DNA from: Eledone cirrhosa
Taxonomy: Eukaryota
Length of the DNA: 64,000 nucleotides
Direction of reading: 5' to 3'
Assembly (NCBI GenBank): GCA_964016885.1
Contig: OZ024740.1
Coordinates: 206,522,001-206,586,000, forward strand
Both the position numbers and the translations under genes were made by a program. Positions 6,148 through 48,817 of the stretch are shown here, one piece after another. Under the pieces are notes generated by a model. That model had not been told where the DNA came from. It did not search any database and was given only the letters and a program-made list of their open reading frames with translations. Numbering within the stretch: the first letter of the stretch is position 1; each line of letters begins with the position of its first letter.

Positions 6148-7639
6148 TTAAATGATGATATCTGTCATTTCTGTGTTGCTGTTCTATCTGCAACACCTAA
6201 TTTTCAGATTGAACAATCTTGTTTCTGGGGATTTTATGTTAGTTTCCAACTCCATAAATTAGCAATTCCAGACATTTTTTCATTTAGAATTAATCATCTA
6301 ATCACATATTTGTGAATGTATTTGATTTGAAAAAAATCTTGTAATTAAAATTTTCTGAATCACACTTGTATAAAATAAATACATCATTCACATTGAGAAA
6401 TTATGTCAGATAGTGCTTTGTAGTATTTGTTCTGGCTCTCTGAGTTCAAATCCCACCGAGGTCAACAAATAAAGTACTAGTCAAGTACTGGAGTCGATTC
6501 TCTCTCTCTCTCTCTCTCAGAAGTCTGCTGTAGTTAGACCTGGAGAAGAGATGAGGTTCATCAAGCGCCCCCAAAATGCTGTATGCTACTACAGCATCCC
6601 TTATGACTCCATCAGGAGTTTGGGACAATACCAATGTTCTTTATACCAGCTACAATCTCTCAATTCAACTTGTTAGTTTGTACATAGTTGTTTGGCCTAC
6701 AAGAAATAACTCTTAAACTTACCTCAAACTACGCTATCTTAAAAAAGAAAGGGCATATTGGATAATTTGTCCTAGATACACTATTTTGGAGGGAAAACAA
6801 TAAAAAAAACAGGGTGGTTACAACTGAAACATCATTGTTCATAAATCTGCTCGACCAGGGCTGACGAAGAGCTAAAATAACAATGACAAGCTCTGGATGT
6901 AATTAGCTTTGTTTTAATGAGTGTATTAATTACGAGTTCAAGTTTGGTATTTGATGGTCTTATCCTTTGGGTGTTTTTGTTTATTTTTAGCTTTGTTTTC
7001 AGTGTGTATTATTTACATATAGGGACATTAAGTGATTACTTTGCATTTGTTCTAGGTGTATCTATGTTCAGATGTAAGTATTTGACGGTCCTATTTGCTT
7101 ATTTACATAAATTAATATAAATTCCCTCTCCCATTATCTATCAACTTCACATGTTCGTCCATTATATGAATCATCCATTCCTATCAAATGTTAGGCTTTT
7201 ATATTGTTATTTTGTTCTTTTATTTACTTGGTCCTTAAACAAATCTATTCCCCATCACCCCTGTTATAATCACTGATATCTTGTTACCAGCCACCATTGT
7301 TTCTAAAATAGACTTTAACTTTACTGTAGCTCTCCTCCTCCTTTATTCACCATCAATAATTGTATTCCATTGACTGTTTATATTGATTAACCTTCAGTTA
7401 ATTATATACTAGAACAACTGAGGTTTCATTTTTTTGTCAAATCAACTATTATTGCTCACTCTTTAAATGTTGGACTACTGAACCATCACTTTAAAATCTT
7501 TACTTGAAATTGTTATTGTTGTTTAGGTTTTTATACCAGTATATTTCTGCTCTTCATGTTCAATAATAACCTGAGCTCAAGGTTAAATAAATCAATTAAT
7601 ATATGTATAGTCACTTCATATATAAGTATTGTTTCTTTA

Positions 7640-14479: not shown

Positions 14480-17221
14480 CTATAAATCATTGTTTATATC
14501 AAAGGGAAATGTAATTCAATTTCAAAGGGTTTTTATTTGTCATAGGACACAGATCTAATTCGCTGTTTTTTGTTTTTCATCTCTTTTGGAAAGTCACTAC
14601 TATATAAACCAATCAGAATCATTCATGGTCAGTAGTGACCATTTGCCCTTTATTTTTCTTGATTTGGTCCAGTCAATATTTATAGTTCCACTAAAAAAAT
14701 AAATATATAGATATTTTTAGAACGACCTTTGACCATCAGTCAATTCTAGGTTTTCTTTGTCTTTAAACAGTTTTTCCATTGTCATATTATATATGTAGAA
14801 TCAACATATTGTTTAGTTAATTCGTCTGATGTTTCTGCTAGTCTTCCTATATTTTCATCTTACAGTTTTGTTTTGTTGTGTTATGAGGTATTTACTACAC
14901 TTTGATCTCTTTATTGTTTTACTTCATTCAGTTTTTCTATTTAAAGAAACTCAGTAGGAAAGCCTCTCACACACAGTGTAGCAGCGTTAAGATAATTAAT
15001 GTCATTCTTTTCAATCTATCTACCAAAGACAGCAACAAAGCTGTTAAATAGTTTGAATTTGAAATTTATTTTGGAAAACAAACAGCAAGAAACATTTATT
15101 CCATGTCATTCTTTAGAGAACACAAAAGAATATTAATGCCCCAGAGACATCAATCAAATAGTGAAAGAATGGGATTTTTCACTTATCTTCCTTGGATTAT
15201 CTGCAGTTACGTTCTCTATATCCAAACATCCGTTTCTATTTTGTACGAATGAAATTAGCCTCCACCATTATTGCCTGAGATTTCATTGCACTATTCTGTA
15301 CCTGATACCAAAGTTGTATTATTGATCTACTTGCTGTGTCAGACAGAGTTTTAATTACTAATACTAGTAATGGAGGAGAAATAAAGAATAAATGTCAGCT
15401 TGATACAATTAATTATACAGGCTGGTTCATAAAGGAACTATAGCGATAATCCCTTTCTAATGATAAGGAGGGATTTCCTTCTTGGCTTTATTCTGTGTTG
15501 TTTTCAATGAAGTATTTATATTCTGCTTGTACTGAGTGCAATATTTTAACCAATAAACCCCACTTTAGTTTATCTCTGCAAATATTGTTTTGGGGGTTTA
15601 ATTCTACAATTTGGAAGCCTTGTCAAAAGGATAATGGAATTTGTGGAGAATTATTTTGCTCCCGTAGATGTAAGTAAGCATTATTTTTACATTGTAACCA
15701 TAACTTTTATATCTTAACACACACACATACACTGACAAACGGAGTACTTGGGTATGACAGTGTTGTTAGGGAGTACTATGTCTGTAAAGAAGAGGGCACC
15801 TTTTTTCCTCAATGACAATAAAAGATGTGTGAAAGTGATTCAATAAAGAGTGTTAGTTCAGTCATTCGCTCCATCTTGTGCTTGTTTCCATATTGGAGCA
15901 GTCCACTGCCAGTGTTCTCCATTGATTCTGTATTCTTCTGTGCTTCCTTCCATGTCTGTTGGTAGTTGTCTGTTTCTCACAAAGGCTGTCAACTGACACT
16001 GGAACAGAACTAAAGCCAATGGTCGTTACTGTCTTCTCCTTTCTCCTGTTGGTGACCAGTCACAATCTTTGTTCCATTTCTTAAGACTTTTTAAAATTAA
16101 ATACAAACAACATTTGTCTTTAACAAGGCCCCATTCTCTCTAACTTTCTAAGTAAAAAAACTAAATGGAAAAGGATTTCCATCAGTTTTGATGATGAATA
16201 TTCTAATTGTTTGATCAAGTGAATAGTCTGTTCATTGTTTATAGTTTAAATTGCTGAGTATTCAACAGGCATTTGTATCCTTAATGTAATTCTCAGAGAG
16301 ATTCAGTGTGGCACTGCATATGATAAGGTTGGTCCTTTAAATTGCAAGTACAAACCATCTGACTTGGCTTTCACATTTTCTCTTTACTCAGTTTTACTTG
16401 CAAGGCTTTAGTTGGCTCAAGGCTATAGTAAAAGAGATTTGTCCAAGATGCCTAACAATGGGATGGAACTTAAAACATCATGATTGCAAAGCAAACTTTT
16501 GAACCATTTGGTCATTTCTGGGTGTAAATGAATGGATTATGTAAAAAGTTCAGATCACGTATTAGGATGTGAGATAAGAATGATTTAGTATGCAGGTTGG
16601 TGACGACAGAGGTTGCTCCCTAGCCTTCTTCCTTCTGTTTTTGAGACAATTACACAAGACATCAGATTTGAATATCCAGTCCATGCTAGCGTGGAAAAAT
16701 GGATGTTAAATGGTGATGAATTTAAATATCCACGAGAGTTTCTGTATGCTGATTACCTAGCTTTTATTGTATAAATTTTCTTGTGTTGTAAGAAGTGACT
16801 AAAAGGGTTTAATCAGAAAGGGCATCTGTCTGAAGTACATTCCAACCCATGAAAGTCCCGTCCAACCAATGATGTTGATAATGAAACTAATAAACTTCAG
16901 AGGATTTGAATGTGAGAACATTAAAAAAATATTAAAGGTTAACTTGGCAAAGACTAAGAAACTGGAAAAGACCACTGAAATATATGTAAAAAATTAATGT
17001 TGCTGATTAGGATGATCTGGTATTAAGGAAGAAGTGCGGGAGGGTGGGGGTCACAACTAATTGATGATGTTGATTAGGCATAAATCTTATATATGCTTCA
17101 ACAATTTTATCTTGTGTTATGAATGAGTTTCCTAAAATACTTGCCAAGAACCACTGCCAAATGAATATTATGATAAAGTATTGAATGTAAATAACATAAA
17201 TAATGATATTAATGATAATGA

Positions 17222-18210: not shown

Positions 18211-18330
18211 TTAATAATAATATTTTCCATTTATCTAGTTTGGTTTGGGTTACATGTTGAATGAAGCTGTTCTTTATATTCAAATTCATTGCTAATTTAG
18301 GAAGAACCTTTCAATAAGTCTTTATCTGTT

Positions 18331-19040
18331 GCTCAATATCTTGACCACCGAAGTAAGATGATGTATAGCTCAATATCTTGACCACTGAAGTAAGATGATG
18401 TATAGCTCAATATCTTGTCTACTGAAGTGGGGTGATGTATAGCTCAATATCTTGACCACTGAAGTAAGATGATGTATAGCTCAATATCTTGACCACTGAA
18501 GTAAGATGATGTATAGCTCAATATCTTTACCACTGAAGTAACATGATGTATAGCTCAATATCTTGACCACTGAAGTAAGATGATGTATAGCTCAATATCT
18601 TGTCTACTGAAGTGGGGTGATGTATAGCTCAATATCTTGACCACTGAAGTAAGATGATACATAGCTCAATATCTTGTCTACTGAAGTGGGATGATGTATA
18701 GCTCATTATCTTGACCACTGAAGTAAGATGATGTATAGCTCAATATCTTGTCTACTGAAGTGCGGTGATGTATAGCTCAATATCTTGACCACTGAAGTAA
18801 GATGATGTATAGCTCAATATCTTGACCACTGAAGTAAGATGATGTATAGCTCAATATCTTGACCACTGAAGTAAGATGATATATAGCTCAATATCTTGTC
18901 TACTGAAGTGGGGTGATGTATAGCTCAATATCTTGTCTACTGAAGTGGGATGATGTATAGCTCAATATCTTGACCACTGAAGTAAGATGATGTATAGCTC
19001 AATATCTTGACCACTGAAGTGAGATGATGTATAGCTGAAT
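18331..19040. repeat. 37-bp minisatellite, ~19 copies
   Basis: Unit gctcaatatcttgaccactgaagtaagatgatgtata, with a variant tgtctactgaagtggggtg. Confidence 0.95.
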
Positions 19041-25677: not shown

Positions 25678-27035
25678 TTAAAACATCTCTCCACTTTTGA
25701 TAGTGATGTTTCTCCTTTTAAACCTCTCGCCGCTTTTGATAGTGTTGTCTCTACTTTTTAAACCTCTCTCCATCTTTGATAGTGATGTTTCTCCTTTTAA
25801 ACCTCTCTCTGCTTTTGATAGTATTGTCTCTACTTTTTAAACTTCTTTCCATCTTTGATAGGGTTGTCTCTACTTTTTAAACCTCTCTCTACCTTTTAAA
25901 CTTCTCTCCACCTTTGATAGTGATGTCTCTACCTTTTAAACCTCTCTCCATCTTTGATAGGATTGTCTTTACCTTTTAAACCTCTCCCCACCTTTGATAG
26001 TGTTGTCTCTACTTTTTAAACCTCTCTCCATCTTTGATAGTGATGTTTCTCCTTTTAAACCTCTCTCTGCTTTTGATAGTATTGTCTCTACTTTTTAAAC
26101 TTCTTTCCACCTTTGATAGGGTTGTCTCTACTTTTTAAACCTCTCTCTACCTTTTAAACTTCTCTCCACCTTTGATAGTGATGTCTCTACCTTTTAAACC
26201 TCTCTCCATCTTTGATAGGATTGTCTTTACCTTTTAAACCTCTCCCCACCTTTGATAGTGTCTCTACTTTTTAAACCTCTCTCTATCTTTGATAGTGATG
26301 TTTCTCCTTTTAAACCTCTCTGCTTTTTATAGTATTGTCTCTACTTTTTAAACTTCTTTCCATCTTTGATAGGGTTGTCTCTACTTTTTAAACCTCTCTC
26401 TACCTTTTAAACTTCTCTCCATATTTGATAGTATTGTCTCTACCTTTCAAACCTCTCTCCACCTTTGATAGGGTTGTCTCTACTTTTAAACCTCTCTCTA
26501 CTTTTGATAGTGTTGTCTCTACCTTTTAAACTTCTCTCCTTTTAAACCTCTTTTCACCTTTGATAGGGTTGTCTCTCTTTTTAAACCTCTCTCCATCTTT
26601 AATAAGGTTATGTCTACCTTTTAAACCTCTCTCTACTTTAGATAGGGTTGTCTCTTCTTTTGAAACCTCTCTCCACTTTTGATAGTGTCGTCTCTACCTT
26701 TTAAACCTCTCTCCACCGTTGATAATGTTGTCACTACCTTTTAAACCTCTCTTCTCTACTTTTGATAGGGATGTCTCACCTTTTAAACCTCTCTCCACCT
26801 TTGACAGTGTTGTCACTACCTTTTAAACTTTTCTCCACTTTTGATAGGGTTGTCTCACCTTTTAAACCTCTCTCCATCTTTGATAGTGTTGTCTCTCCTT
26901 TTTAAACCTTTCTCCACCCTTGATAGGGTTGTCTCTCCTTTTTAAACCTTTCTCCACCCTTGATAGGGTTGTCTCTCCTTTTTAAACCTCTTTCCATCTC
27001 TGATAGTGATGTCTCTACCTTTTAAACCTCTCATC
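25678..27035. repeat. ~39-bp pyrimidine-rich minisatellite, ~35 copies
   Basis: Unit cttttaaacctctctccacctttgatagtgttgtctcta; ends ~70 bp before the first visible RagC/D coding exon. Confidence 0.95.
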
Positions 27036-27105
27036 CACTAATTTTTTATCCTGTTTCTAAACTTTCTTTATCTTCCATTGACAAAGTGTTTCTCTCTCCT
27101 TGCAG

Positions 27106-27245
27106 TCCTATGAAGATGATGCTGGTGGCGATTTTATGGTCGGATCATTCCAAGATTTTGGATATGGTACAGTTGACCCGGAGACGGAGGCTACAACTTC
27201 AAGTTCGGATGAGAAACCACGGATTCTGTTGATGGGTCTTCGAAG
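27106..27245 (+). CDS. RRAGC: Rag GTPase RagC/D, first visible coding exon (start ATG probably on an upstream exon)
   Basis: ttgcag| SYEDDAGGDFMVGSFQDFGYG...EKPRILLMGLR |gtcagt; resembles RagC DFGYG and KPRILLMGLRR. Confidence 0.9.
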
Positions 27246-27685: not shown

Positions 27686-27780
27686 AAGTGGCAAGTCCTC
27701 CATACAAAAAGTTGTGTTTCATAAAGTATCCCCGAATGAGACCCTGTTCCTCGAAAGCACTAACAAAATAGTAAAAGATG
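27686..27780 (+). CDS. RRAGC: RagC/D exon (P-loop, switch I)
   Basis: ttcag| [32 protein letters not shown] |gtaggt. Confidence 0.97.
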
Positions 27781-28692: not shown

Positions 28693-28826
28693 ATATTTCC
28701 AACAGTTCATTTGTCCAGTTTCAAGTATGGGATTTGCCCGGTCACATAGATTTCTTTGATACCTTATTTGATGTTGACAAAATATTTCGTGGTTGTGGTG
28801 CCTTGATTTTTGTCATAGATGCGCAA
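28693..28826 (+). CDS. RRAGC: RagC/D exon (G3/switch II)
   Basis: cacag| [45 protein letters not shown] |gtgagt. Confidence 0.97.
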
Positions 28827-28992: not shown

Positions 28993-29192
28993 GATGAATA
29001 TGTGGAGGCGCTAGACAAACTAAATATGACAGTGACGCGGGCACATAAAATTAACCCTGAAATCAAGTTTGAGGTATTCATTCATAAAGTGGATAGCTTG
29101 TCTGATGATCAAAAGATAGAATCTCAGCGAGATATTCACCAGAGGGCTAATGATGATCTTGTTGATGCTGGATTTGAAGGGATCTACTTGAG
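28993..29192 (+). CDS. RRAGC: RagC/D exon (G4, HKVD)
   Basis: cctag| [14 protein letters not shown]...[31 protein letters not shown]...IYL ag|gtaaga. Confidence 0.97.
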
Positions 29193-29477
29193 GTAAGAGC
29201 AACACTGTGACAAATGTAAAATTAGACATTTGATGTCAGACGGTCTTACACAGATACAGTTTATAATATACACAAACATAGTTTATTTATACACAGATAC
29301 AGTTTATATGTATATTCCCTGTTAATACATTTATTACCTTATTTTTAATGAAAGACACTGCCTATAATTTACAAATAATTTTGAAAATAATCAAGAATTT
29401 GGAGGGATTTAGTAATACAAGTAATTTTCTCATTATTAAGCTGATGTTCAGAACATAAGTCTACAAAAGTTTTTACA

Positions 29478-32400
29478 TAGTTTCTATCTGACCAGTATCT
29501 ATGACCACTCTATACAGTTTCTATCTGACCAGTATCTATGACTACTCTATACAGTTTCTAACTGACCAGTATCTATGACCACTCTATACAGTTTCTACCT
29601 GACCAGTATCTATGACCACTCTATACAGTTTCTACCTGACCAGCATCTATGACCACTCTATATAGTTTCTAACTGACCAGTATCTATGACTACTCTATAC
29701 AGTTTCTACCTGACCAGCATCTATGACTACTCTATACAGTTTCTAACTGACCAGCTTCTACGATCACTCTATACAGTTTCTACCTGACCAGTATCTATGA
29801 CCACTCTATACAGTTTCTAACTGACCAGCTTCTATGACTACTCTATACAGTTTCTACCTGACCAGCTTCTATGACCACTCTATACAGTTTCTAACTGACC
29901 AGCTTCTATGACTACTCTATACAGTTTCTATCTGACCAGCTTCTATGACCATTCTATACAGTTTCTACCTGACCAGCATCTATGACCACTCTATACAGTT
30001 TCTACCTGACCAGCTTCTATGACCACTCTATACAGTTTCTACCTGACCAGCTTCTATGACCACTCTATACAGTTTCTACCTGACCAGCATCTATGACCAC
30101 TCTATACAGTTTCTACCTGACCAGCTTCTATGACCACTCTATATAGTTTCTACCTGACCAGTATCTATGACCACTCTATACAGTTTCTATCTGACCAGTA
30201 TCTATGACCACTCTATACAGTTTCTATCTGACCAGTATCTATGACCACTCTATACAGTTTCTATCTGACCAGTATCTATGACCACTCTATACAGTTTCTA
30301 CCTGACCAGTATCTATGACCACTCTATATAGTTTCTACCTGACCAGTATCTATGACCACTCTATACAGTTTCTACCTGACCAGTATCTATGACCACTCTA
30401 TACAGTTTCTATCTGACCAGTATCTATGACCACTCTATACAGTTTCTATCTGACCAGTATCTATGACCACTCTATACAGTTTATATCTGACCAGTATCTA
30501 TGACCACTCTATACAGTTTCTAACTGACCAGTATCTATGACCACTCTATACAGTTTCTACCTGACCAGTATCTATGACCACTCTATACAGTTTATATCTG
30601 ACCAGTATCTATGACCACTCTATAGTTTCTATCTGACCAGTATCTATGACCACTCTATACAGTTTCTATCTGACCAGTATCTATGACCACTCTATACAGT
30701 TTCTATCTGACCAGTATCTATGACCACTCTATACAGTTTCTATCTGACCAGTATCTATGACCACTCTATACAGTTTCTATCTGACCAGTATTTATGACCA
30801 CTCTATACAGTTTCTACCTGACCAGTATCTATGACCACTCTATACAGTTTCTATCTGACCAGTATCTATGACCACTCTATACAGTTTCTATCTGACCAGT
30901 ATCTATGACCACTCTATACAGTTTCTATCTGACCAGTATCTATGACCACTCTATACAGTTTCTAACTGACCAGTATCTATGACCACTCTATACAGTTTCT
31001 ATCTGACCAGTATCTATGACCACTCTATACTGTTTCTATCTGACCAGTATCTATGACCACTCTATACAGTTTCTATCTGACCAGTATCTATGACCACTCT
31101 ATACAGTTTCTAACTGACCAGTATCTATGACCACTATACAATTTCTACCTGACCAGTATCTATGACCACTCTATAGAGTTTCTACCTGACCAGTATCTAT
31201 GACCACTCTATACAGTTTATATCTGACCAGTATCTATGACCACTCTATACAGTTTATATCTGACCAGTATCTATGACCACTCTATACAGTTTATATCTGA
31301 CCAGTATCTATGACCACTCTATACAGTTTCTACCTGACCAGTATCTATGACCACTCTATACAGTTTATATCTGACCAGTATCTATGACCACTCTATACAG
31401 TTTATATCTGACCAGTATCTATGACCACTCTATAGTTTCTATCTGACCAGTATCTATGACCACTCTATACAGTTTCTACCTGACCAGTATCTATGACCAC
31501 TCTATACAGTTTCTATCTGACCAGTATCTATGACCACTCTATACAGTTTATATCTGACCAGTATCTATGACCACTCTATACAGTTTCTATCTGACCAGTA
31601 TCTATGACCACTCTATACAGTTTATATCTGACCAGTATCTATGACCACTCTATACAGTTTATATCTGACCAGTATCTATGACCACTCTATAGAGTTTCTA
31701 TCTGACCAGTATCTATGACCACTCTATACAGTTTCTAACTGACCAGTATCTATGACCACTCTATACAGTTTATATCTGACCAGTATCTATGACCACTCTA
31801 TACAGTTTATATCTGACCAGTATCTATGACCACTCTATACAGTTTCTACCTGACCAGTATCTATGACCACTCTATACAGTTTCTATCTGACCAGTATCTA
31901 TGACCACTCTATACAGTTTATATCTGACCAGTATCTATGACCACTCTATACAGTTTCTACCTGACCAGTATCTATGACCACTCTATACAGTTTATATCTG
32001 ACCAGTATCTATGACCACTCTATACAGTTTATATCTGACCAGTATCTATGACCACTCTATAGAGTTTCTACCTGACCAGTATCTATGACCACTCTATACA
32101 GTTTCTAACTGACCAGTATCTATGACCACTCTATACAGTTTATATCTGACCAGTATCTATGACCACTCTATAGAGTTTCTAACTGACCAGTATCTACGAC
32201 CATCTATACAGTTTCTACTTGACCAGTATCTATGACCACTCTATACAGTTTATATCTGACCAGTATCTATGACCACTCTATACAGTTTCTATCTGACAAG
32301 TATCTATGACCACTCTATACAGTTTATATCTGACCAGTATCTATGACCACTCTATACAGTTTCTAACTGACCAGCATCTATGACCACTCTATACATTTTC

Positions 32401-35400
32401 TACCTGACCAGCATCTATGACCACTCTATACAGTTTCTAACTGACCAGTATCTATGACCATTCTATACAGTTTCTAACTGACCAGTATCTACGACCACTC
32501 TATACAGTTTCTACCTGACCAGTATCTACGACCACTCTATACAGTTTCTACCTGACCAGTATCTATGACCACTCTATAGAGTTTCTATCTGACCAGTATC
32601 TATGACCACTCTATACAGTTTCTACCTGACCAGTATCTATGACCACTCTATACAGTTTCTAACTGACCAGTATCTATGACCACTCTATACAGTTTCTAAC
32701 TGACCAGTATCTATGACCACTCTATACAGTTTCTACCTGACCAGTATCTATGACCACTCTATACAGTTTCTAACTGACCAGTATCTATGACCACTCTATA
32801 GAGTTTCTACCTGACCAGTATCTATGACCACTCTATACAGTTTATATCTGACCAGTATCTATGACCACTCTATACAGTTTATATCTGACCAGTATCTATG
32901 ACCACTCTATACAGTTTATATCTGACCAGTATCTATGACCACTCTATACAGTTTCTACCTGACCAGTATCTATGACCACTCTATACAGTTTCTATCTGAC
33001 CAGTATCTATGACCACTCTATACAGTTTCTATCTGACCAGTATCTATGACCACTCTATACAGTTTCTATCTGACCAGTATCTATGACCACTCTATACAGT
33101 TTCTACCTGACCAGTATCTATGACCACTCTATACAGTTTATATCTGACCAGTATCTATGACCACTCTATACAGTTTATATCTGACCAGTATCTATGACCA
33201 CTCTATACAGTTTCTACCTGACCAGTATCTATGACCACTCTATACAGTTTCTATCTGACCAGTATCTATGACCACTCTATACAGTTTCTACCTGACCAGT
33301 ATCTATGACCACTCTATACAGTTTCTATACGACCAGTATCTATGACCACTCTATACAGTTTATATCTGACCAGTATCTATGACCACTCTATACAGTTTCT
33401 ATCTGACCAGTATCTATGACCACTCTATACAGTTTATATCTGACCAGTATCTATGACCACTCTATACAGTTTATGTCTGACCAGTATCTATGACCACTCT
33501 ATAGAGTTTCTATCTGACCAGTATCTATGACCACTCTATAGAGTTTCTACCTGACCAGTATCTATGACCACTCTATACAGTTTCTAACTGACCAGTATCT
33601 ATGACCACTCTATACAGTTTATATCTGACCAGTATCTATGACCACTCTATAGTTTCTAACTGACCAGTATCTACGACCATCTATACAGTTTCTACCTGAC
33701 CAGTATCTATGACCACTCTATACAGTTTATATCTGACCAGTATCTATGACCACTCTATACAGTTTCTATCTGACCAGTATCTATGACCACTCTATACAGT
33801 TTCTATCTGACCAGTATCTATGACCACTCTATACAGTTTCTAACTGACCAGCATCTATGACCACTCTATACAGTTTCTACCTGACCAGCATCTATGACCA
33901 CTCTATACAGTTTCTAACTGACCAGTATCTATGACCATTCTATACAGTTTCTAACTGACCAGTATCTACGACCACTCTATACAGTTTCTACCTGACCAGT
34001 ATCTACGACCACTCTATACAGTTTCTACCTGACCAGTATCTATGACCACTCTATAGAGTTTCTATCTGACCAGTATCTATGACCACTCTAGAGTTTCTAC
34101 CTGACCAGTATCTATGACCACTCTATACAGTTTCTAACTGACCAGTATCTATGACCACTCTATACAGTTTCTAATTGACCAGTATCTATGACCACTCTAT
34201 ACAGTTTCTACCTGACCAGTATCTATGACCACTCTATACAGTTTCTACCTGACCAGTATCTATGACCACTCTATACAGTTTCTAACTGACCAGTATCTAT
34301 GACCACTCTATACAGTTTTTACCTGACCAGTATCTATGACCACTCTATACAGTTTCTATCTGACCAGTATCTATGACTACTCTATACAGTTTCTACCTGA
34401 CCAGCATCTATGACCACTCTATACAGTTTCTACCTGACCAGTATCTATGACCACTCTATACAGTTTATATCTGACCAGTATCTATGACCACTCTATACAG
34501 TTTATATCTGACCAGTATCTATGACCACTCTATACAGTTTCTACCTGACCAGTATCTATGACCACTCTATACAGTTTATATCTGACCAGTATCTATGACC
34601 ACTCTATACAGTTTCTACCTGACCAGTATCTCTGACCACTCTATACAGTTTCTAACTGACCAGTATCTATGACCACTCTATACAGTTTCTACCTGACCAG
34701 TATCTATGACCACTCTATACAGTTTCTATCTGACCAGTATCTATGACCACTCTATACAGTTTCTATCTGACCAGTATCTATGACCACTCTATACAGTTTC
34801 TATCTGACCAGTATCTATGACCACTCTATACAGTTTCTACCTGGCCAGTATCTATGACCACTCTATACAGTTTCTACCTGACCAGTATCTATGACCACTC
34901 TATACAGTTTCTACCTGACCAGTATCTATGACCACTCTATACAGTTTCTATCTGACCAGTATCTATGACCACTCTATACAGTTTCTATCTGACCAGTATC
35001 TATGACCACTCTATACAGTTTCTATCTGACCAGTATCTATGACCACTCTACAGTTTCTATCTGACCAGTATCTATGACCACTCTATACAGTTTGTAACTG
35101 ACCAGTATCTATGACCACTCTATACAGTTTCTACCTGACCAGTATCTATGACCACTCTATACAGTTTATATCTGACCAGTATCTATGACCACTCTATACA
35201 GTTTCTATCTGACCAGTATCTATGACCACTCTATACAGTTTCTAACTGACCAGTATCTATGACCACTCTATACAGTTTCTATCTGACCAGTATCTATGAC
35301 CACTCTATACAGTTTCTATCTGACCAGTATCTATGACCACTCTATACAGTTTCTACCTGACCAGTATCTATGACCACTCTATACAGTTTCTATCTGACCA

Positions 35401-38400
35401 GTATCTATGACCACTCTATACAGTTTCTATCTGACCAGTATCTATGACCACTCTATACAGTTTCTATCTGACCAGTATCTATGACCACTCTATACAGTTT
35501 CTACCTGACCAGTATCTATGACCACTCTATACAGTTTATATCTGACCAGTATCTATGACCACTCTATACAGTTTATATCTGACCAGTATCTATGACCACT
35601 CTATACAGTTTCTACCTGACCAGTATCTATGACCACTCTATACAGTTTCTATCTGACCAGTATCTATGACCACTCTATACAGTTTCTACCTGACCAGTAT
35701 CTATGACCACTCTATACAGTTTCTATACGACCAGTATCTATGACCACTCTATACAGTTTCTATCTGACCAGTATCTATGACCACTCTATACAGTTTCTAT
35801 CTGACCAGTATCTATGACCACTCTATACAGTTTATATCTGACCAGTATCTATGACCACTCTATACAGTTTATATCTGACCAGTATCTATGACCACTCTAT
35901 AGAGTTTCTATCTGACCAGTATCTATGACCACTCTATAGAGTTTCTACCTGACCAGTATCTATGACCACTCTATACAGTTTCTAACTGACCAGTATCTAT
36001 GACCACTCTATACAGTTTATATCTGACCAGTATCTATGACCACTCTATAGTTTCTAACTGACCAGTATCTACGACCATCTATACAGTTTCTACCTGACCA
36101 GTATCTATGACCACTCTATACAGTTTATATCTGACCAGTATCTATGACCACTATACAGTTTCTATCTGACCAGTATCTATGACCACTCTATACAGTTTCT
36201 AACTGACCAGCATCTATGACCACTCTATACAGTTTCTACCTGACCAGCATCTATGACCACTCTATACAGTTTCTAACTGACTAGTATCTATGACCATTCT
36301 ATACAGTTTCTAACTGACCAGTATCTACGACCACTCTATACAGTTTCTACCTGACCAGTATCTACGACCACTCTATACAGTTTCTACCTGACCAGTATCT
36401 ATGACCACTCTATAGAGTTTCTATCTGACCAGTATCTATGACCACTCTAGAGTTTCTACCTGACCAGTATCTATGACCACTCTATACAGTTTCTAACTGA
36501 CCAGTATCTATGACCACTCTATACAGTTTCTAATTGACCAGTATCTATGACCACTCTATAAAGTTTCTACCTGACCAGTATCTATGACCACTCTATACAG
36601 TTTCTACCTGACCAGTATCTATGACCACTCTATACAGTTTCTAACTGACCAGTATCTATGACCACTCTATACAGTTTCTACCTGACCAGTATCTATGACC
36701 ACTCTATATAGTTTCTATCTGACCAGTATCTATGACTACTCTATACAGTTTCTACCTGACCAGCATCTATGACCACTCTATACAGTTTCTACCTGACCAG
36801 TATCTATGACCACTCTATACAGTTTATATCTGACCAGTATCTATGACCACTCTATACAGTTTATATCTGACCAGTATCTATGACCACTCTATACAGTTTC
36901 TACCTGACCAGTATCTATGACCACTCTATACAGTTTATATCTGACCAGTATCTATGACCACTCTATACAGTTTCTACCTGACCAGTATCTCTGACCACTC
37001 TATACAGTTTCTAACTGACCAGTATCTATGACCACTCTATACAGTTTCTACCTGACCAGTATCTATGACCACTCTATACAGTTTCTATCTGACCAGTATC
37101 TATGACCACTCTATACAGTTTCTATCTGACCAGTATCTATGACCACTCTATACAGTTTCTATCTGACCAGTATCTATGACCACTCTATACAGTTTCTACC
37201 TGGCCAGTATCTATGACCACTCTATACAGTTTCTACCTGACCAGTATCTATGACCACTCTATACAGTTTCTACCTGACCAGTATCTATGACCACTCTATA
37301 CAGTTTCTATCTGACCAGTATCTATGACCACTCTATACAGTTTCTATCTGACCAGTATCTATGACCACTCTATACAGTTTCTATCTGACCAGTATCTATG
37401 ACCACTCTACAGTTTCTATCTGACCAGTATCTATGACCACTCTATACAGTTTGTAACTGACCAGTATCTATGACCACTCTATACAGTTTCTACCTGACCA
37501 GTATCTATGACCACTCTATACAGTTTATATCTGACCAGTATCTATGACCACTCTATACAGTTTCTATCTGACCAGTATCTATGACCACTCTATACAGTTT
37601 CTAACTGACCAGTATCTATGACCACTCTATACAGTTTCTATCTGACCAGTATCTATGACCACTCTATACAGTTTCTATCTGACCAGTATCTATGACCATT
37701 CTATACAGTTTCTAACTGACCAGTATCTATGACCACTCTATACAGTTTCTACCTGACCAGTATCTATGACCACTCTATACAGTTTCTATCTGACCAGTAT
37801 CTATGACCACTCTATACAGTTTCTATCTGACCAGTATCTATGACCACTCTATACAGTTTCTACCTGACCAGTATCTATGACCACTCTATACAGTTTCTAC
37901 CTGACCAGTATCTATGACCACTCTATACAGTTTCTAACTGACCAGTATCTATGACCACTCTATACAGTTTCTACCTGACCAGTATCTATGACCACTCTAT
38001 ACAGTTTCTATCTGACCAGTATCTATGACCACTCTATACAGTTTGTAACTGACCAGTATCTATGACGACTCTATACAGTTTCTACCTGACCAGTATCTAT
38101 GACCACTCTATACAGTTTATATCTGACCAGTATCTATGACCACTCTATACAGTTTCTATCTGACCAGTATCTATGACCACTCTATACAGTTTCTAACTGA
38201 CCAGTATCTATGACCACTCTATACAGTTTCTATCTGACCAGTATCTATGACCACTCTATACAGTTTCTATCTGACCAGTATCTATGACCATTCTATACAG
38301 TTTCTAACTGACCAGTATCTATGACCACTCTATACAGTTTCTACCTGACCAGTATCTATGACCACTCTATACAGTTTCTATCTGACCAGTATCTATGACC

Positions 38401-41400
38401 ACTCTATACAGTTTCTATCTGACCAGTATCTATGACCACTCTATACAGTTTCTACCTGACCAGTATCTATGACCACTCTATACAGTTTCTACCTGACCAG
38501 TATCTATGACCACTCTATACAGTTTCTAACTGACCAGTATCTATGACCACTCTATACAGTTTCTACCTGACCAGTATCTATGACCACTCTATACAGTTTC
38601 TATCTGACCAGTATCTATGACCACTCTATACAGTTTATATCTGACCAGTATCTATGACTACTCTATACAGTTTATATCTGACCAATATCTATGACCACTC
38701 TGTACAGTTTATATCTGACCAGTATCTATGACCACTCTATACAGTTTCTATCTGACCAGTATCTATGACCACTCTATACAGTTTCTAACTGACCAGTATC
38801 TATGACCACTCTATACAGTTTCTATCTGACCAGTATCTATGACCACTCTATACAGTTTCTATCTGACCAGTATCTATGACCACTCTATACAGTTTCTATC
38901 TGACCAGTATCTATGACCACTCTACAGTTTCTATCTGACCAGTATCTATGACCACTCTATACAGTTTGTAACTGACCAGTATCTATGACCACTCTATACA
39001 GTTTCTACCTGACCAGTATCTATGACCACTCTATACAGTTTATATCTGACCAGTATCTATGACCACTCTATACAGTTTCTATCTGACCAGTATCTATGAC
39101 CACTCTATACAGTTTCTAACTGACCAGTATCTATGACCACTCTATACAGTTTCTATCTGACCAGTATCTATGACCACTCTATACAGTTTCTATCTGACCA
39201 GTATCTATGACCATTCTATACAGTTTCTAACTGACCAGTATCTATGACCACTCTATACAGTTTCTACCTGACCAGTATCTATGACCACTCTATACAGTTT
39301 CTATCTGACCAGTATCTATGACCACTCTATACAGTTTCTATCTGACCAGTATCTATGACCACTCTATACAGTTTCTACCTGACCAGTATCTATGACCACT
39401 CTATACAGTTTCTACCTGACCAGTATCTATGACCACTCTATACAGTTTCTAACTGACCAGTATCTATGACCACTCTATACAGTTTCTACCTGACCAGTAT
39501 CTATGACCACTCTATACAGTTTCTATCTGACCAGTATCTATGACCACTCTATACAGTTTGTAACTGACCAGTATCTATGACCACTCTATACAGTTTCTAC
39601 CTGACCAGTATCTATGACCACTCTATACAGTTTATATCTGACCAGTATCTATGACCACTCTATACAGTTTCTATCTGACCAGTATCTATGACCACTCTAT
39701 ACAGTTTCTAACTGACCAGTATCTATGACCACTCTATACAGTTTCTATCTGACCAGTATCTATGACCACTCTATACAGTTTCTATCTGACCAGTATCTAT
39801 GACCATTCTATACAGTTTCTAACTGACCAGTATCTATGACCACTCTATACAGTTTCTACCTGACCAGTATCTATGACCACTCTATACAGTTTCTATCTGA
39901 CCAGTATCTATGACCACTCTATACAGTTTCTATCTGACCAGTATCTATGACCACTCTATACAGTTTCTACCTGACCAGTATCTATGACCACTCTATACAG
40001 TTTCTACCTGACCAGTATCTATGACCACTCTATACAGTTTCTAACTGACCAGTATCTATGACCACTCTATACAGTTTCTACCTGACCAGTATCTATGACC
40101 ACTCTATACAGTTTCTATCTGACCAGTATCTATGACCACTCTATACAGTTTATATCTGACCAGTATCTATGACTACTCTATACAGTTTATATCTGACCAA
40201 TATCTATGACCACTCTGTACAGTTTATATCTGACCAGTATCTATGACCACTCTATACAGTTTCTATCTGACCAGTATCTATGACCACTCTATACAGTTTC
40301 TAACTGACCAGTATCTATGACCACTCTATACAGTTTCTATCTGACCAGTATCTATGACCACTCTATACAGTTTCTACCTGACCAGTATCTATGACCACTC
40401 TATACAGTTTCTATCTGACCAGTATCTATGACCACTCTATACAGTTTATATCTGACCAGTATCTATGACTACTCTATACAGTTTCTAACTGACCAGTATC
40501 TATGACCACTCTATATAGTTTCTATCTGACCAGTATCTATGACCACTCTATTTATAGTTTCTATCTGACCAGTATCTATGACCACTCTATTGAGTTTATA
40601 TCTGACCAGTATCTATGACCACTCTATATAGTTTCTAACTGACCAGTATCTATGACCACTCTATACAGTTTCTATCTGACCAGTATCTATGACCACTCTA
40701 TACAGTTTCTATCTGACCAGTATCTATGACCACTCTATACAGTTTCTATCTGACCAGTATCTATGACTACTCTATACAGTTTATATCTGACCAATATCTA
40801 TGACCACTCTGTACAGTTTATATCTGACCAGTATCTATGACCACTCTATACAGTTTCTAACTGACCAGTATCGATGACCACTCTATACAGTTTCTATCTG
40901 ACCAGTATCTATGACCACTCTATACAGTTTCTATCTGACCAGTATCTATGACTACTCTATACAGTTTATATCTGACCAATATCTATGACCACTCTGTACA
41001 GTTTATATCTGACCAGTATCTATGACCACTCTATACAGTTTCTAACTGACCAGTATATGACCACTCTATACAGTTTCTATCTGACCAGTATCTATGACCA
41101 CTCTATACAGTTTATATCTGACCAGTATCTATGACTACTCTATACAGTTTATATCTGACCAATATCTATGACCACTCTGTACAGTTTATATCTGACCAGT
41201 ATCTATGACCACTCTATACAGTTTCTATCTGACCAGTATCTATGACCACTCTATACAGTTTCTAACTGACCAGTATCTATGACCACTCTATACAGTTTCT
41301 ATCTGACCAGTATCTATGACCACTCTATACAGTTTCTACCTGACCAGTATCTATGACCACTCTATACAGTTTCTATCTGACCAGTATCTATGACCACTCT

Positions 41401-44400
41401 ATACAGTTTATATCTGACCAGTATCTATGACTACTCTATACAGTTTCTAACTGACCAGTATCTATGACCACTCTATATAGTTTCTATCTGACCAGTATCT
41501 ATGACCACTCTATTTATAGTTTCTATCTGACCAGTATCTATGACCACTCTATTGAGTTTATATCTGACCAGTATCTATGACCACTCTATATAGTTTCTAA
41601 CTGACCAGTATCTATGACCACTCTATACAGTTTCTATCTGACCAGTATCTATGACCACTCTATACAGTTTCTATCTGACCAGTATCTATGACCACTCTAT
41701 ACAGTTTCTATCTGACCAGTATCTATGACCACTCTATACAGTTTATATCTGACCAGTATCTATGACCACTCTATACAGTTTCTAACTGACCAGCATCTAT
41801 GACCACTCTATACAGTTTCTACCTGACCAGCATCTATGACCACTCTATACAGTTTCTAACTGACCAGTATCTATGACCATTCTATACAGTTTCTAACTGA
41901 CCAGTATCTACGACCACTCTATACAGTTTCTACCTGACCAGTATCTACGACCACTCTATACAGTTTCTACCTGACCAGTATCTATGACCACTCTATAGAG
42001 TTTCTATCTGACCAGTATCTATGACCACTCTAGAGTTTCTACCTGACCAGTATCTATGACCACTCTATACAGTTTCTAACTGACCAGTATCTATGACCAC
42101 TCTATACAATTTCTAATTGACCAGTATCTATGACCACTCTATAAAGTTTCTACCTGACCAGTATCTATGACCACTCTATACAGTTTCTACCTGACCAGTA
42201 TCTATGACCACTCTATATAGTTTCTATCTGACCAGTATCTATGACTACTCTATACAGTTTCTACCTGACCAGCATCTATGACCACTCTATACAGTTTCTA
42301 CCTGACCAGTATCTATGACCACTCTATACAGTTTATATCTGACCAGTATCTATGACCACTCTATACAGTTTATATCTGACCAGTATCTATGACCACTCTA
42401 TACAGTTTCTACCTGACCAGTATCTATGACCACTCTATACAGTTTATATCTGACCAGTATCTATGACCACTCTATACAGTTTCTACCTGACCAGTATCTC
42501 TGACCACTCTATACAGTTTCTAACTGACCAGTATCTATGACCACTCTATACAGTTTCTACCTGACCAGTATCTATGACCACTCTATACAGTTTCTATCTG
42601 ACCAGTATCTATGAACACTCTATACAGTTTCTATCTGACCAGTATCTATGACCACTCTATACAGTTTCTATCTGACCAGTATCTATGACCACTCTATACA
42701 GTTTCTACCTGGCCAGTATCTATGACCACTCTATACAGTTTCTACCTGACCAGTATCTATGACCACTCTATACAGTTTCTACCTGACCAGTATCTATGAC
42801 CACTCTATACAGTTTCTATCTGACCAGTATCTATGACCACTCTATACAGTTTCTATCTGACCAGTATCTATGACCACTCTATACAGTTTCTATCTGACCA
42901 GTATCTATGACCACTCTACAGTTTCTATCTGACCAGTATCTATGACCACTCTATACAGTTTGTAACTGACCAGTATCTATGACCACTCTATACAGTTTCT
43001 ACGTGACCAGTATCTATGACCACTCTATACAGTTTATATCTGACCAGTATCTATGACCACTCTATACAGTTTCTATCTGACCAGTATCTATGACCACTCT
43101 ATACAGTTTCTAACTGACCAGTATCTATGACCACTCTATACAGTTTCTATCTGACCAGTATCTATGACCACTCTATACAGTTTCTAACTGACCAGTATCT
43201 ATGACCACTCTATACAGTTTCTATCTGACCAGTATCTATGACCACTCTCTACAGTTTCTATCTGACCAGTATCTATGACCATTCTATACAGTTTCTAACT
43301 GACCAGTATCTATGACCACTCTATACAGTTTCAACCTGACCAGTATCTATGACCACTCTATACAGTTTCTATCTGACCAGTATCTATGACCACTCTATAC
43401 AGTTTCTATCTGACCAGTATCTATGACCACTCTATACAGTTTCTACCTGACCAGTATCTATGACCACTCTATACAGTTTCTACCTGACCAGTATCTATGA
43501 CCACTCTATACAGTTTCTAACTGACCAGTATCTATGACCACTCTATACAGTTTCTACCTGACCAGTATCTATGACCACTCTATACAGTTTCTATCTGACC
43601 AGTATCTATGACCACTCTATACAGTTTATATCTGACCAGTATCTATGACTACTCTATACAGTTTATATCTGACCAATATCTATGACCACTCTATACAGTT
43701 TCTAACTGACCAGTATCTATGACCACTCTATACAGTTTCTATCTGACCAGTATCTATGACCACTCTATACAGTTTCTAACTGACCAGTATCTATGACCAT
43801 TCTATACAGTTTCTAACTGACCAGTATCTATGACCACTCTATACAGTTTCTACCTGACCAGTATCTATGACCACTCTATACAGTTTCTATCTGACCAGTA
43901 TCTATGACCACTCTATACAGTTTCTATCTGACCAGTATCTATGACCACTCTATACAGTTTCTACCTGACCAGTATCTATGACCACTCTATACAGTTTTTA
44001 CCTGACCAGTATCTATGACCACTCTATACAGTTTCTAACTGACCAGTATCTATGACCACTCTATACAGTTTCTACCTGACCAGTATCTATGACCACTCTA
44101 TACAGTTTCTATCTGACCAGTATCTATGACCACTCTATACAGTTTATATCTGACCAGTATCTATGACTACTCTATACAGTTTATATCTGACCAATATCTA
44201 TGACCACTCTGTACAGTTTATATCTGACCAGTATCTATGACCATTCTATACAGTTTCTATCTGACCAGTATCTATGACCACTCTATACAGTTTCTAACTG
44301 ACCAGTATCTATGACCACTCTATACAGTTTCTATCTGACCAGTATCTATGACCACTCTATACAGTTTCTACCTGACCAGTATCTATGACCACTCTATACA

Positions 44401-45526
44401 GTTTCTATCTGACCAGTATCTATGACCACTCTATACAGTTTATATCTGACCAGTATCTATGACTACTCTATACAGTTTCTAACTGACCAGTATCTATGAC
44501 CACTCTATATAGTTTCTATCTGACCAGTATCTATGACCACTCTATTTATAGTTTCTATCTGACCAGTATCTATGACCACTCTATTGAGTTTATATCTGAC
44601 CAGTATCTATGACCACTCTATATAGTTTCTAAGTGACCAGTATCTATGACCACTCTATACAGTTTCTATCTGACCAGTATCTATGACCACTCTATACAGT
44701 TTCTATCTGACCAGTATCTATGACCACTCTATACAGTTTCTATCTGACCAGTATCTATGACTACTCTATACAGTTTATATCTGACCAATATCTATGACCA
44801 CTCTGTACAGTTTATATCTGACCAGTATCTATGACCACTCTATACAGTTTCTAACTGACCAGTATCGATGACCACTCTATACAGTTTCTATCTGACCAGT
44901 ATCTATGACCACTCTATACAGTTTCTATCTGACCAGTATCTATGACTACTCTATACAGTTTATATCTGACCAATATCTATGACCACTCTGTACAGTTTAT
45001 ATCTGACCAGTATCTATGACCACTCTATACAGTTTCTAACTGACCAGTATCTATGACCACTCTATACAGTTTCTATCTGACCAGTATCTATGACCACTCT
45101 ATACAGTTTATATCTGACCAGTATCTATGACTACTCTATACAGTTTATATCTGACCAATATCTATGACCACTCTGTACAGTTTATATCTGACCAGTATCT
45201 ATGACCACTCTATACAGTTTCTAACTGACCAGTATCTATGACCACTCTATACAGTTTCTATCTGACCAGTATCTATGACCACTCTATACAGTTTCTATCT
45301 GACCAGTATCTATGACCACTCTATACAGTTTCTAACTGACCAGTATCGATGACCACTCTATACAGTTTCTATCTGACCAGTATCTATGATCACTCTATAC
45401 AGTTTAATATCTCTGACCACTCTATTTTACTTCTATGCAGTTTCTAACTGACCAATAACTATGATCACTCTCTATATTTTACTCCTAAACAGTTTCTATC
45501 TGACCAGTATCTATGACCACTCTATA
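29478..45526 (+). repeat. ~16-kb intronic satellite, 37-bp unit, ~430 copies, derived from the downstream acceptor/exon junction
   Basis: Unit cag|tttctatctgaccagtatctatgaccactctata; identical to 45490-45526. Confidence 0.98.
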
Positions 45527-45607
45527 TTTGAAGCATTCAGCAAAGTGGTCCAGAAACTGATACCTCAGCTACCTACATTGGAAAACCTTCTGAACATGCT
45601 CATCTCT
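45493..45607 (+). CDS. RRAGC: RagC/D exon (G5 region and linker)
   Basis: aaacag| [39 protein letters not shown] |gtaagt. Confidence 0.97.
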
Positions 45608-46374
45608 GTAAGTAACTTAAAAACATTCTGGTTTGTAGCCAACACCACCAGGCAATATCTATATAGCACTTTACAACATCTAATTTAATATTAAACAGAT
45701 ATGGTATTACTGTACAATAGTTAAAAAAAAAAAACGTTTGTCTTTTCATCCTTGCACAAGTGTAGCAGTTTTTGATGGAGCAACTGTTTTTGTAGCTGGT
45801 TCTCATTTCTACATCCAACTTCTAGTGGAATTTGTCACATACGAAGTTATGCTCCTTGATACATACAGAGTTATGTCCCTTGAAATGTCTTGCTTGCCTA
45901 GTTAGAAACAGATTTATGTTGCTTTAGGTAAACAGAACAATATATATGATAAGGTTTGATCTGGTAACTATTCAAACACCTTTACTTCATAGCCCTAGTT
46001 TTCCAAATAAACCACAATGATCGTGAAGTAAATGTTCTTGATTGTTAGGCACAGGGTTAGAAGTTCAAACCTTACTACTCAAAATCAGAAAACAGCACAG
46101 CTCCTATGTCATTATGAAATATTTTTTCACGCTCAGAGTTGCTGAAGCATAGAACAAACTACCTGCATCAGTTGTTAACTGTCTGGACACTGCATCCTTC
46201 AAAACTTCCAAGCTTCCTTAAATTAGCCCTCAAAATATATGCACATATGTGTATGTGTGTGTGTGGCTGTGTGTATATCATGACTCTTACACTGTTCACC
46301 TTCCTGACATTTGTACATTATTCTATGTACTATTCATGTACCTATGATGAGTTGTAGTGCACCTGAGCACTGTA

Positions 46375-47613: not shown

Positions 47614-47756
47614 AATTCTGGTATTGAAAAAGCCTTCTTGTTTGATGTTGTCAGCAAAATATACATTGCCACCGATAGTTCACCTGTTGACATGCAGTCC
47701 TATGAATTGTGTTGTGATATGATAGATGTGGTCTTAGATATTTCCTGTATATATGG
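47614..47756 (+). CDS. RRAGC: RagC/D exon (roadblock domain)
   Basis: ttcag| [47 protein letters not shown] gg|gtaagt. Confidence 0.97.
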
Positions 47757-48200: not shown

Positions 48201-48349
48201 GTTACAGGATGATAACGAATTGAACGCATTTGATGATGAGTCTGCATCGATCATCAAACTAAACAATACAACAGTCTTATACCTTCGGGAGGTCAATAGA
48301 TATTTGGCTCTTGTTTGCATTTTACGTGAGGATAACTTCATTAAACAAG
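48201..48349 (+). CDS. RRAGC: RagC/D exon (roadblock domain)
   Basis: tgtag| LQDDNELNAFDDESASIIKLNNTTVLYLREVNRYLALVCILREDNFIKQ g|gtaaga. Confidence 0.97.
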
Positions 48350-48674: not shown

Positions 48675-48817
48675 GTATAATTAACTACAACTTTCTCTGC
48701 TTCCGCAAAGCTATCCAAGAAGTGTTTGAAGTGCGGCAAAAGATGTTGGCCTCCAAGACTGAGAATGGTACTGATCATCAGGTGCTCAATGGTATTGCCG
48801 TCAACAAAGATGAATGA
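48675..48817 (+). CDS. RRAGC: RagC/D last coding exon
   Basis: accag| GIINYNFLCFRKAIQEVFEVRQKMLASKTENGTDHQVLNGIAVNKDE*; TGA at 48815-48817. Confidence 0.95.

Follow-up and report, generated by a model that had tools for sequence, protein, structure and literature searches.

How might a correct 3' splice site be selected when hundreds of copies of the same junction stand in front of it? The question is raised by a RagC GTPase gene of Eledone cirrhosa, which lies on the + strand of the window (the whole 64,000-nt stretch of DNA that was analyzed) and has eight coding exons: exons 1 to 4 at 27106-27245, 27686-27780, 28693-28826, and 28993-29192, and exons 5 to 8 at 45493-45607, 47614-47756, 48201-48349, and 48675-48817. 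The junctions are GT-AG throughout, and the spliced frame is open over 372 residues, 369 of which are identical in the named RagC proteins of O. vulgaris, O. sinensis, and O. bimaculoides (362/372 in Argonauta and 344/372 in Sepia). The three RagC exons that were tested all matched Pfam Gtr1_RagA. The two exons of interest here are the fourth (28993..29192, +; 200 nt; E = 2.6e-12), whose product has 100% identity to RagC from O. sinensis and O. vulgaris and which ends in phase 2, inside a Ser codon, at the donor GTAAGA (position 29193), and the fifth (45493..45607, +; 115 nt; E = 5.7e-15), which has no amino acid differences from named Octopus RagC and is followed by GTAAGT (45608..45613, +), the sole good donor close to where the array described below ends. 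Junction spacing is equal in 73 of 78 named non-human homologues, and a duplicated junction motif was found in none of these 78; together with the conservation of the protein, this leads us to expect that the gene is correctly spliced.

The intron between these two exons (29193..45492, +; 16,300 nt) is almost entirely a tandem array, preceded by 286 nt of unique sequence at the 5' end. Tandem Repeats Finder reported a 37-nt repeat of 432.9 copies at 29479-45471, and our tiling resolved it into 431 bulk units (29479..45400, +) and two terminal units of 38 and 52 nt. Each bulk unit consists of AG, 34 exon bases, and a C. The first-pass annotation, made from the letters of the sequence, had stated that the bulk consensus matches the exon exactly, and it does: the first 36 nt of the consensus are identical to AG plus the first 34 nt of the 115-nt exon, which is thus the template of the array. 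Most bulk units are 37 nt long (411, with 14 of 35 nt, 3 of 36 nt, and 3 of 39 nt); 110 of the 431 are exact copies of the consensus, the mean distance from it is ~1.1 differences, and a single unit carries five. The array holds 868 AGs when the real acceptor is included. For all 867 of those upstream, the resulting frame stops before the true exon ends, and the frame is kept only by the real AG and by an exonic AG at +15. The latter belongs to a CAG within 45493-45507, 15 nt 3' of the acceptor, whose use would mean the in-frame loss of five codons.

Three structural features of the sequence identify this array as an acceptor-side mirage. Its unit holds intron and exon parts of one boundary (C, AG, and 34 exon bases in the bulk; 16 plus 34 bases in the terminal copies); its copies are intronic and the authentic exon is intact, as seen in the 372-residue open frame; and the splice dinucleotide is kept, with the junction AG starting 427 of the 431 bulk units.

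The internal organization of the bulk array bears on how it grew. In the one haplotype analyzed, we distinguished 63 unit types, which follow one another in a non-periodic order, and found that stretches as long as 26 units are duplicated exactly, at several distances. No simple higher-order period was dominant in the bulk array, the best lags being 108, 64, 16, 149, and 41. These patterns point to multi-unit block duplication as the driver of array growth, and the block copies would indicate unequal exchange. Variants are also unevenly placed along the array: counted by sixths, CCAAT occurs 0, 0, 0, 1, 4, and 5 times (3' half only), and a T-to-C change at unit position 18 occurs 12, 5, 3, 0, 3, and 0 times (mostly 5'). 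The first unit at the 5' end is a perfect consensus copy, and degeneracy is confined to the 3' edge. An excess of synonymous variants (11 of the 20 possible synonymous changes observed versus 18 of 79 others; raw P = 0.007) was considered as a sign of exchange between exon and array and was given up, since P rose to 0.08 to 0.21 once the variants were stratified by substitution type.

Among the 431 bulk units, 74 contain TTCTAAC, 10 contain CCAAT, and 420 contain CTGAC, so branch-like motifs, at -27 and -31, are available to bulk junctions too. These junctions have no T-run tract, their longest T-run being ~1. On the donor side, the best of the 846 GTs in the array matches at 6/9 positions, and it does so once; the real RagC donors match at 6 to 7 of 9. 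A recursive splice site consists of an AG followed directly by a donor GT. Recursive splicing was rejected for this array, whose junctions read AG|TT or AG|TA and whose donor matches do not exceed 6/9.

The two units at the 3' end differ from all others. The first-pass annotation had described the two or three copies nearest the exon as degenerate; this holds for two (45401-45438 and 45439-45490), and the third from the end, at 45364, has one difference only. The penultimate copy (45401..45438, +; 38 nt) has a shortened exon-derived head without the internal AG, followed by a tract. In the last copy, the exon-derived head (45441..45476, +) carries four substitutions and a 2-nt insertion across its 34 exon-derived bases (P ~0.003 at a 3% rate), and the tract and AG of the working acceptor follow (45477..45492, +; tract at -16 to -4). 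The changes described earlier within the head were found as described: CCAGT has become CCAAT at 45452-45456 (the changed base is 45455), and TTCTAAC lies at 45442-45448. The combination of TTCTAAC with loss of the internal AG occurs in the last copy only, as does AATAAC (1 of 433 units). The extra tract that had been attributed to the last copy is indeed present, as a T-rich stretch at 45473-45489, but it is not special to that copy, because the penultimate copy has one as well; these are the only 2 of the 433 units that do. Tandem Repeats Finder separately called a 52-nt, two-copy repeat at 45423-45527.

Comparison of the two terminal copies suggests where they came from. Before their indels, both are 50-nt units made of 16 intron-type bases and a 34-base exon head; the 16-base tails, which are in register with the exon head, show 3 differences between them. 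Removal of 13 nt from the 50-nt unit yields the exact 37-mer, although this is a weak test in which one tail base is kept. The first-pass annotation had offered two readings of the terminal copies, selective reshaping and descent from older, longer units, and both the shared tract-plus-AG tails and the 13-nt relation fit the second, which we regard as the better of the two. On balance, we think it probable, though well short of certain, that the terminal copies are relics of a tract-bearing 50-nt unit, that a tract-less 37-mer derived from it was the form that expanded, and that the last AG is used through exon definition plus its tract. The order of events that we infer is as follows. A 50-nt piece lying over the ancestral acceptor (16 intron bases, including the tract and AG, and 34 exon bases) would have been tandemly duplicated at least twice, and the last two copies would be the decayed relics of this unit. 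A 13-nt deletion would then have removed the tract, plausibly by slippage between similar words of the exon (ACTCTATA) and the intron (ACTCCTAAA); the exon word does resemble the tail word, which marks a possible slippage site. The resulting 37-mer would have risen to 431 copies through block duplication, with the longer edge copies escaping homogenization. The working acceptor would thus have inherited its tract and would take its branch point from the formerly exonic head of the last copy.

Several observations count against the 50-nt model. Degeneracy is seen at the 3' edge only, and for a bulk of equal age under neutral change, the probability that the consensus differs from the exon at 0 of 34 positions is 0.014 to 0.044. 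The latter value implies that the bulk is younger than the edge or was reseeded from the exon or else that the edge has been changing faster. In addition, the 5' flank of the array scores -2.4 with our acceptor matrix (described below), and as a relic of the ancestral acceptor it was not significant: 15 to 32% of random AG flanks match the tails as well as it does. The unchanged bulk consensus and the non-significant likeness of the 5' flank to the tails make room for another origin, in which the 37-mer came first and the tract arose de novo when a later 50-nt duplication brought together TATATTT, with which the exon continues, and the end of a 37-mer variant, producing a T-run before the last AGs, such that the working 3' signal would be made wholly from repeat and exon pieces. 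The last copy does follow the exon for three T residues beyond base 34, the remainder of its tail looks like the frequent GACTACTCTATAC variant, whose C-to-T change is found in 21 copies, and the lack of significant tail-likeness in the 5' flank agrees with such an origin. Yet both terminal tails have, in an identical position, one additional base that the 37-mer lacks; the 5' flank ends in TTTTAC plus three bases plus AG, a hexamer that is present in 0.5% of 12-nt windows (a post hoc comparison); and the de novo route requires a stage at which an intact, conserved gene depended on an acceptor of bulk strength. We therefore regard it as possible but doubtful, and we retain descent from the tract-bearing 50-nt unit as the preferred reading.

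How would the last AG be chosen? The suggestion that exon definition aids this acceptor is plausible in terms of exon length: measured from the donor at 45608, just 7 of the 868 AGs yield exons of ≤300 nt, and 2 yield exons of ≤200 nt. Exon definition with this donor could narrow the field to about those 7 AGs, and a T-run tract could narrow it further to 2, those ending at 45440 and 45492. Between these, the last AG may be favored by the shorter exon (115 versus 167 nt) and by a stronger competing branch point 3' of the other AG; for 45492 to be used, the branch point should fall 3' of that AG, within 45441-45476. NMD is an established pathway, and mis-spliced products, which would be frameshifted or stopped, could be removed by it, including any leakage to the AG at 45440. 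Judged from sequence features, the most likely explanation is that the last AG wins through exon definition and its tract, with NMD clearing errors.

The AG at 45440 deserves separate attention as a decoy. This acceptor (45411..45440, +), at -52 relative to the real site, comprises CTCTGAC (branch A at 45416, -25), a tract at 45425-45438, and AG at 45439-45440; it has the best tract among the 868 array AGs and an AG-free stretch of 36 nt. Acceptor matrix scores were 8.2 for the decoy, 4.0 for the real site, and 1.0 on average for bulk junctions (maximum, 3.3). The matrix is crude, having been trained on only the seven other acceptors of the gene (leave-one-out range, -2.2 to 7.6), but the decoy outscored the real acceptor in all seven leave-one-out models, and direct counts agree: in the 17 bases before NAG, pyrimidines/T number 13/10 for the decoy, 11/8 for the real site, and ~11/6 for the bulk. 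Sequence scores thus do not explain why the decoy should lose. We also considered and rejected RNA structure as a means of hiding decoys, since the predicted structure has little stability (-4.7 kcal/mol over 127 nt) and accessibility differs little (0.72 for the last of the final eight junctions and 0.38 to 0.62 for the others).

Use of the decoy would add 52 nt and lead after two codons to TAA (45445-45447), which sits inside TTCTAAC. The decoy might accordingly be a real alternative 3' splice site whose stop-containing product is lost to NMD, reducing or tuning RagC output. Its tract, CTGAC at -25, AG-free run, and 167-nt exon are all compatible with use, and the nearest pseudo-sites were used in two human donor-side cases, those of the 6-16 gene and CBS (PMC1557585). 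Against this, the amphioxus repeats discussed below were reported without aberrant mRNA (PMC3087553, PMC3902484), and low-level use of the decoy would be noise rather than regulation. This reading of the -52 site seems to us rather unlikely, although it is compatible with the 50-nt-unit origin.

The properties of the working acceptor itself were also assessed, since the first-pass annotation had proposed that selection reshaped the terminal copies such that only the last junction is used. Its claim that terminal repeats form the splice signal stands insofar as the branch point would have to fall in sequence derived from the repeat, since nothing but array precedes the AG for 16 kb. It was likewise right that 45441-45490 is free of AG; this 50-nt gap is the longest in the array. 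The zone is nevertheless ordinary. The AG-free stretches of the seven other RagC acceptors measure 17, 237, 109, 41, 16, 31, and 19 nt, so that 50 nt is exceeded at two of the seven; stretches of ≥50 nt precede 6.3% of 1,733 non-array AGs; and a 50-nt gap also occurs in this intron's unique sequence. The branch-point consensus is TACTAAC. The head at 45441..45476 offers five candidate branch points, with A at -46, -42, -35, -29, and -26, among which TTCTAAC (45442..45448, +; A at -46) is the best match to this consensus (6/7) and -35, -29, and -26 have the more favorable positions. With the internal G restored, the AG-free zone would still be 35 nt, longer than at four of the seven other acceptors. 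The restored AG would lie 7 and 3 nt 3' of the candidates at -46 and -42, respectively, and 5' of the other three. AGs within ~12 to 15 nt of a branch point can be bypassed (PMC1431707), and given this range, the lost AG would be dispensable under every branch-point candidate.

Selective reshaping of the last copy, through loss of the internal AG, gain of TTCTAAC and AATAAC, and a stop in the decoy frame, such that the last AG wins, therefore has to be weighed against ordinary decay. The last copy is ~4-fold more diverged than the bulk, whose consensus is identical to the exon; it alone joins TTCTAAC to AG loss and alone has AATAAC; its branch match is the best, its AG-free run is unsurpassed in the array, and its predicted accessibility exceeds that of the other seven among the final eight junctions; and the internal AG is absent from both terminal copies. 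These features are common or cheap, however. TTCTAAC and CCAAT both occur in the bulk, loss of the internal AG has a probability of 0.22 given four random substitutions, and restoring that AG would break no exclusion rule. Moreover, divergence at the edge is expected without selection (PMC3087553), and the strongest competitor, 52 nt upstream, was left unweakened: the penultimate junction has the better tract as well as CTGAC at -25, which is at odds with selection for exclusive use of the last one. Selection of this kind is unlikely. Misassembly of the array length or of the terminal copies is very improbable: long arrays are hard to assemble and this one contains exact blocks of up to 26 units, but the window has no N, the unit types follow a non-periodic order, and the terminal copies, unique in sequence, run directly into an intact exon.

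Tandem repeats across exon-intron boundaries have been described in amphioxus, where they were named mirages (PMC3087553); the reported host genes are Adh3, the globin genes BflGb6 and BflGb9, and troponin C and PGBD5 (PMC3087553; for the last two, PMC3902484). Like the RagC array, amphioxus mirages consist of boundary-spanning tandem units that include splice dinucleotides, and BflGb6 likewise has its mirage on the acceptor side, with three and six units and normal mRNA by RT-PCR (PMC3087553). The 37-nt RagC unit falls within the 10- to 72-bp range given for the Adh3 mirages (PMC3087553, PMC3902484). The amphioxus arrays also undergo concerted evolution from which boundary copies are excluded (PMC3087553); in RagC, such exclusion would hold at the 3' edge only, the 5' edge starting with a consensus unit. 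Since both the mirage class and degenerate edge copies were already known, what the first-pass annotation noticed is mostly expected behavior. The RagC array differs in its 431 copies (16 kb), against three to six for BflGb6 (PMC3087553), in its mollusc host, and in having two unit classes of which the tract-less one expanded. Splicing was checked by RT-PCR for the amphioxus mirages (PMC3087553), whereas the RagC array is known from its sequence.

A second group of comparable repeats comprises human VNTRs at splice sites: F7 IVS7 (37 bp, 5 to 9 copies), the 6-16 gene, CBS IVS13, lamin B2, and PDGF, all on the donor side and ranging from 5 to 25 copies (PMC1557585). As in RagC, a splice site is reiterated in the intron, and the copy adjoining the exon is the authentic one. 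These human repeats are donor-side, and 5'-to-3' scanning takes the first copy (PMC1557585); the RagC array is acceptor-side. Because RagC needs the last of ~430 acceptors, scanning from the 5' end offers no explanation for its choice.

Other systems share single features with RagC. In ATP2A1, an intron was gained through tandem duplication of an AG|GT site, with YTNAY at -48 (PMC3265369); as may be the case in RagC, a branch point and a tract can come from exon sequence that has been duplicated. Such a duplication makes an intron, whereas the RagC intron is older, with an AG|TT junction and a unique 5' end. Three named fish gene models (Acipenser, Polyodon, and Pangasianodon) are broken at the junction codon of the array intron, and this shared break codon implies that the intron position predates the array. 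We therefore ruled out both an intron created by the array and one gained by tandem duplication, on the grounds of the 286 nt of unique 5' sequence, the AG|TT junction, and the position shared with the fish models. Exons with distant branch points resemble the RagC acceptor in having the best branch motif where the AG-free zone begins (PMC1431707). In RagC, however, the zone is only 50 nt, inside the gene's own range of 16 to 237 nt, and the tract is beside the AG rather than beside the branch motif, a conventional layout unlike that of such exons, and we rejected this class. A literature search found no report of splice-junction repeats in cephalopods or other molluscs, most subscription journals lying outside its reach, and the accessible portions of the SPLASH preprint and of the O. 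minor genome paper held nothing relevant to such repeats.

The mirage class is known; what is new here is how large the array is, that its host is a mollusc, and that the decoy at -52 is a candidate poison acceptor. One exon of a highly conserved gene is preceded by 867 decoy AGs, all leading to stops, and the end of the array forms a graded series: tract-less copies, a tract-bearing decoy at -52, and the real site. This layout is a natural test of exon definition versus branch-point scanning and an acceptor-side counterpart of the F7 donor model, and the -52 acceptor, stronger-looking than the real site, is the most useful new lead. We offer, as a conjecture that is quite unlikely to hold in full, that splicing filters satellite growth: only the tract-less unit could expand, to >400 silent acceptors; the branch point would be formerly coding sequence; and the -52 poison acceptor would set the dosage of RagC (mTORC1 pathway) via NMD. 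Were this true, and were giant mirages to recur across octopod genes, they would offer a general means by which introns expand and, in nature, a titration of the choice of a single 3' splice site out of hundreds.

Several minor observations were made elsewhere in the window. A 40-bp pyrimidine-rich array at 25681-27038 (+) ends 67 nt before the acceptor at 27105; its 32 AGs that follow C/T-rich runs all score below 4.0 with the acceptor matrix (best, 2.9), so that RagC would have another group of decoys that splicing seems to ignore. A 37-bp array at 18301-19040 (+) has a unit with a donor-like GAA|GTAAGA; a possible 52-nt exon running from the AG at 18300 into its first unit would constitute a donor-side mirage, with no protein support. 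A 44-bp array at 62898-64000 is cut by the window end and starts right after CTGCAG; its minus-strand 33-aa frame had no hits among 1.84 billion proteins, leaving a second mirage at that array unproven. When 11 other arrays in the window were examined by eye, none overlapped a mapped RagC exon. Upstream of the mapped exons, RagC probably has an alternative first coding exon at 15634-15675 (+), which ends in a GTAAGT donor and matches the N terminus of O. sinensis isoform X2 at 6 of 12 residues, and a second donor-ended candidate of this kind lies at ~7056-7080. An 8.5-kb TA-rich run (52654-61122) is interrupted near 53105, possibly by an assembly join or an insertion, and the interrupting sequence recurs in a long frame that joins a dispersed-repeat copy. 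Finally, 9940-12220 (-) reads by eye like the remnant of a LINE-type reverse transcriptase, with a second partial copy at 1-361.
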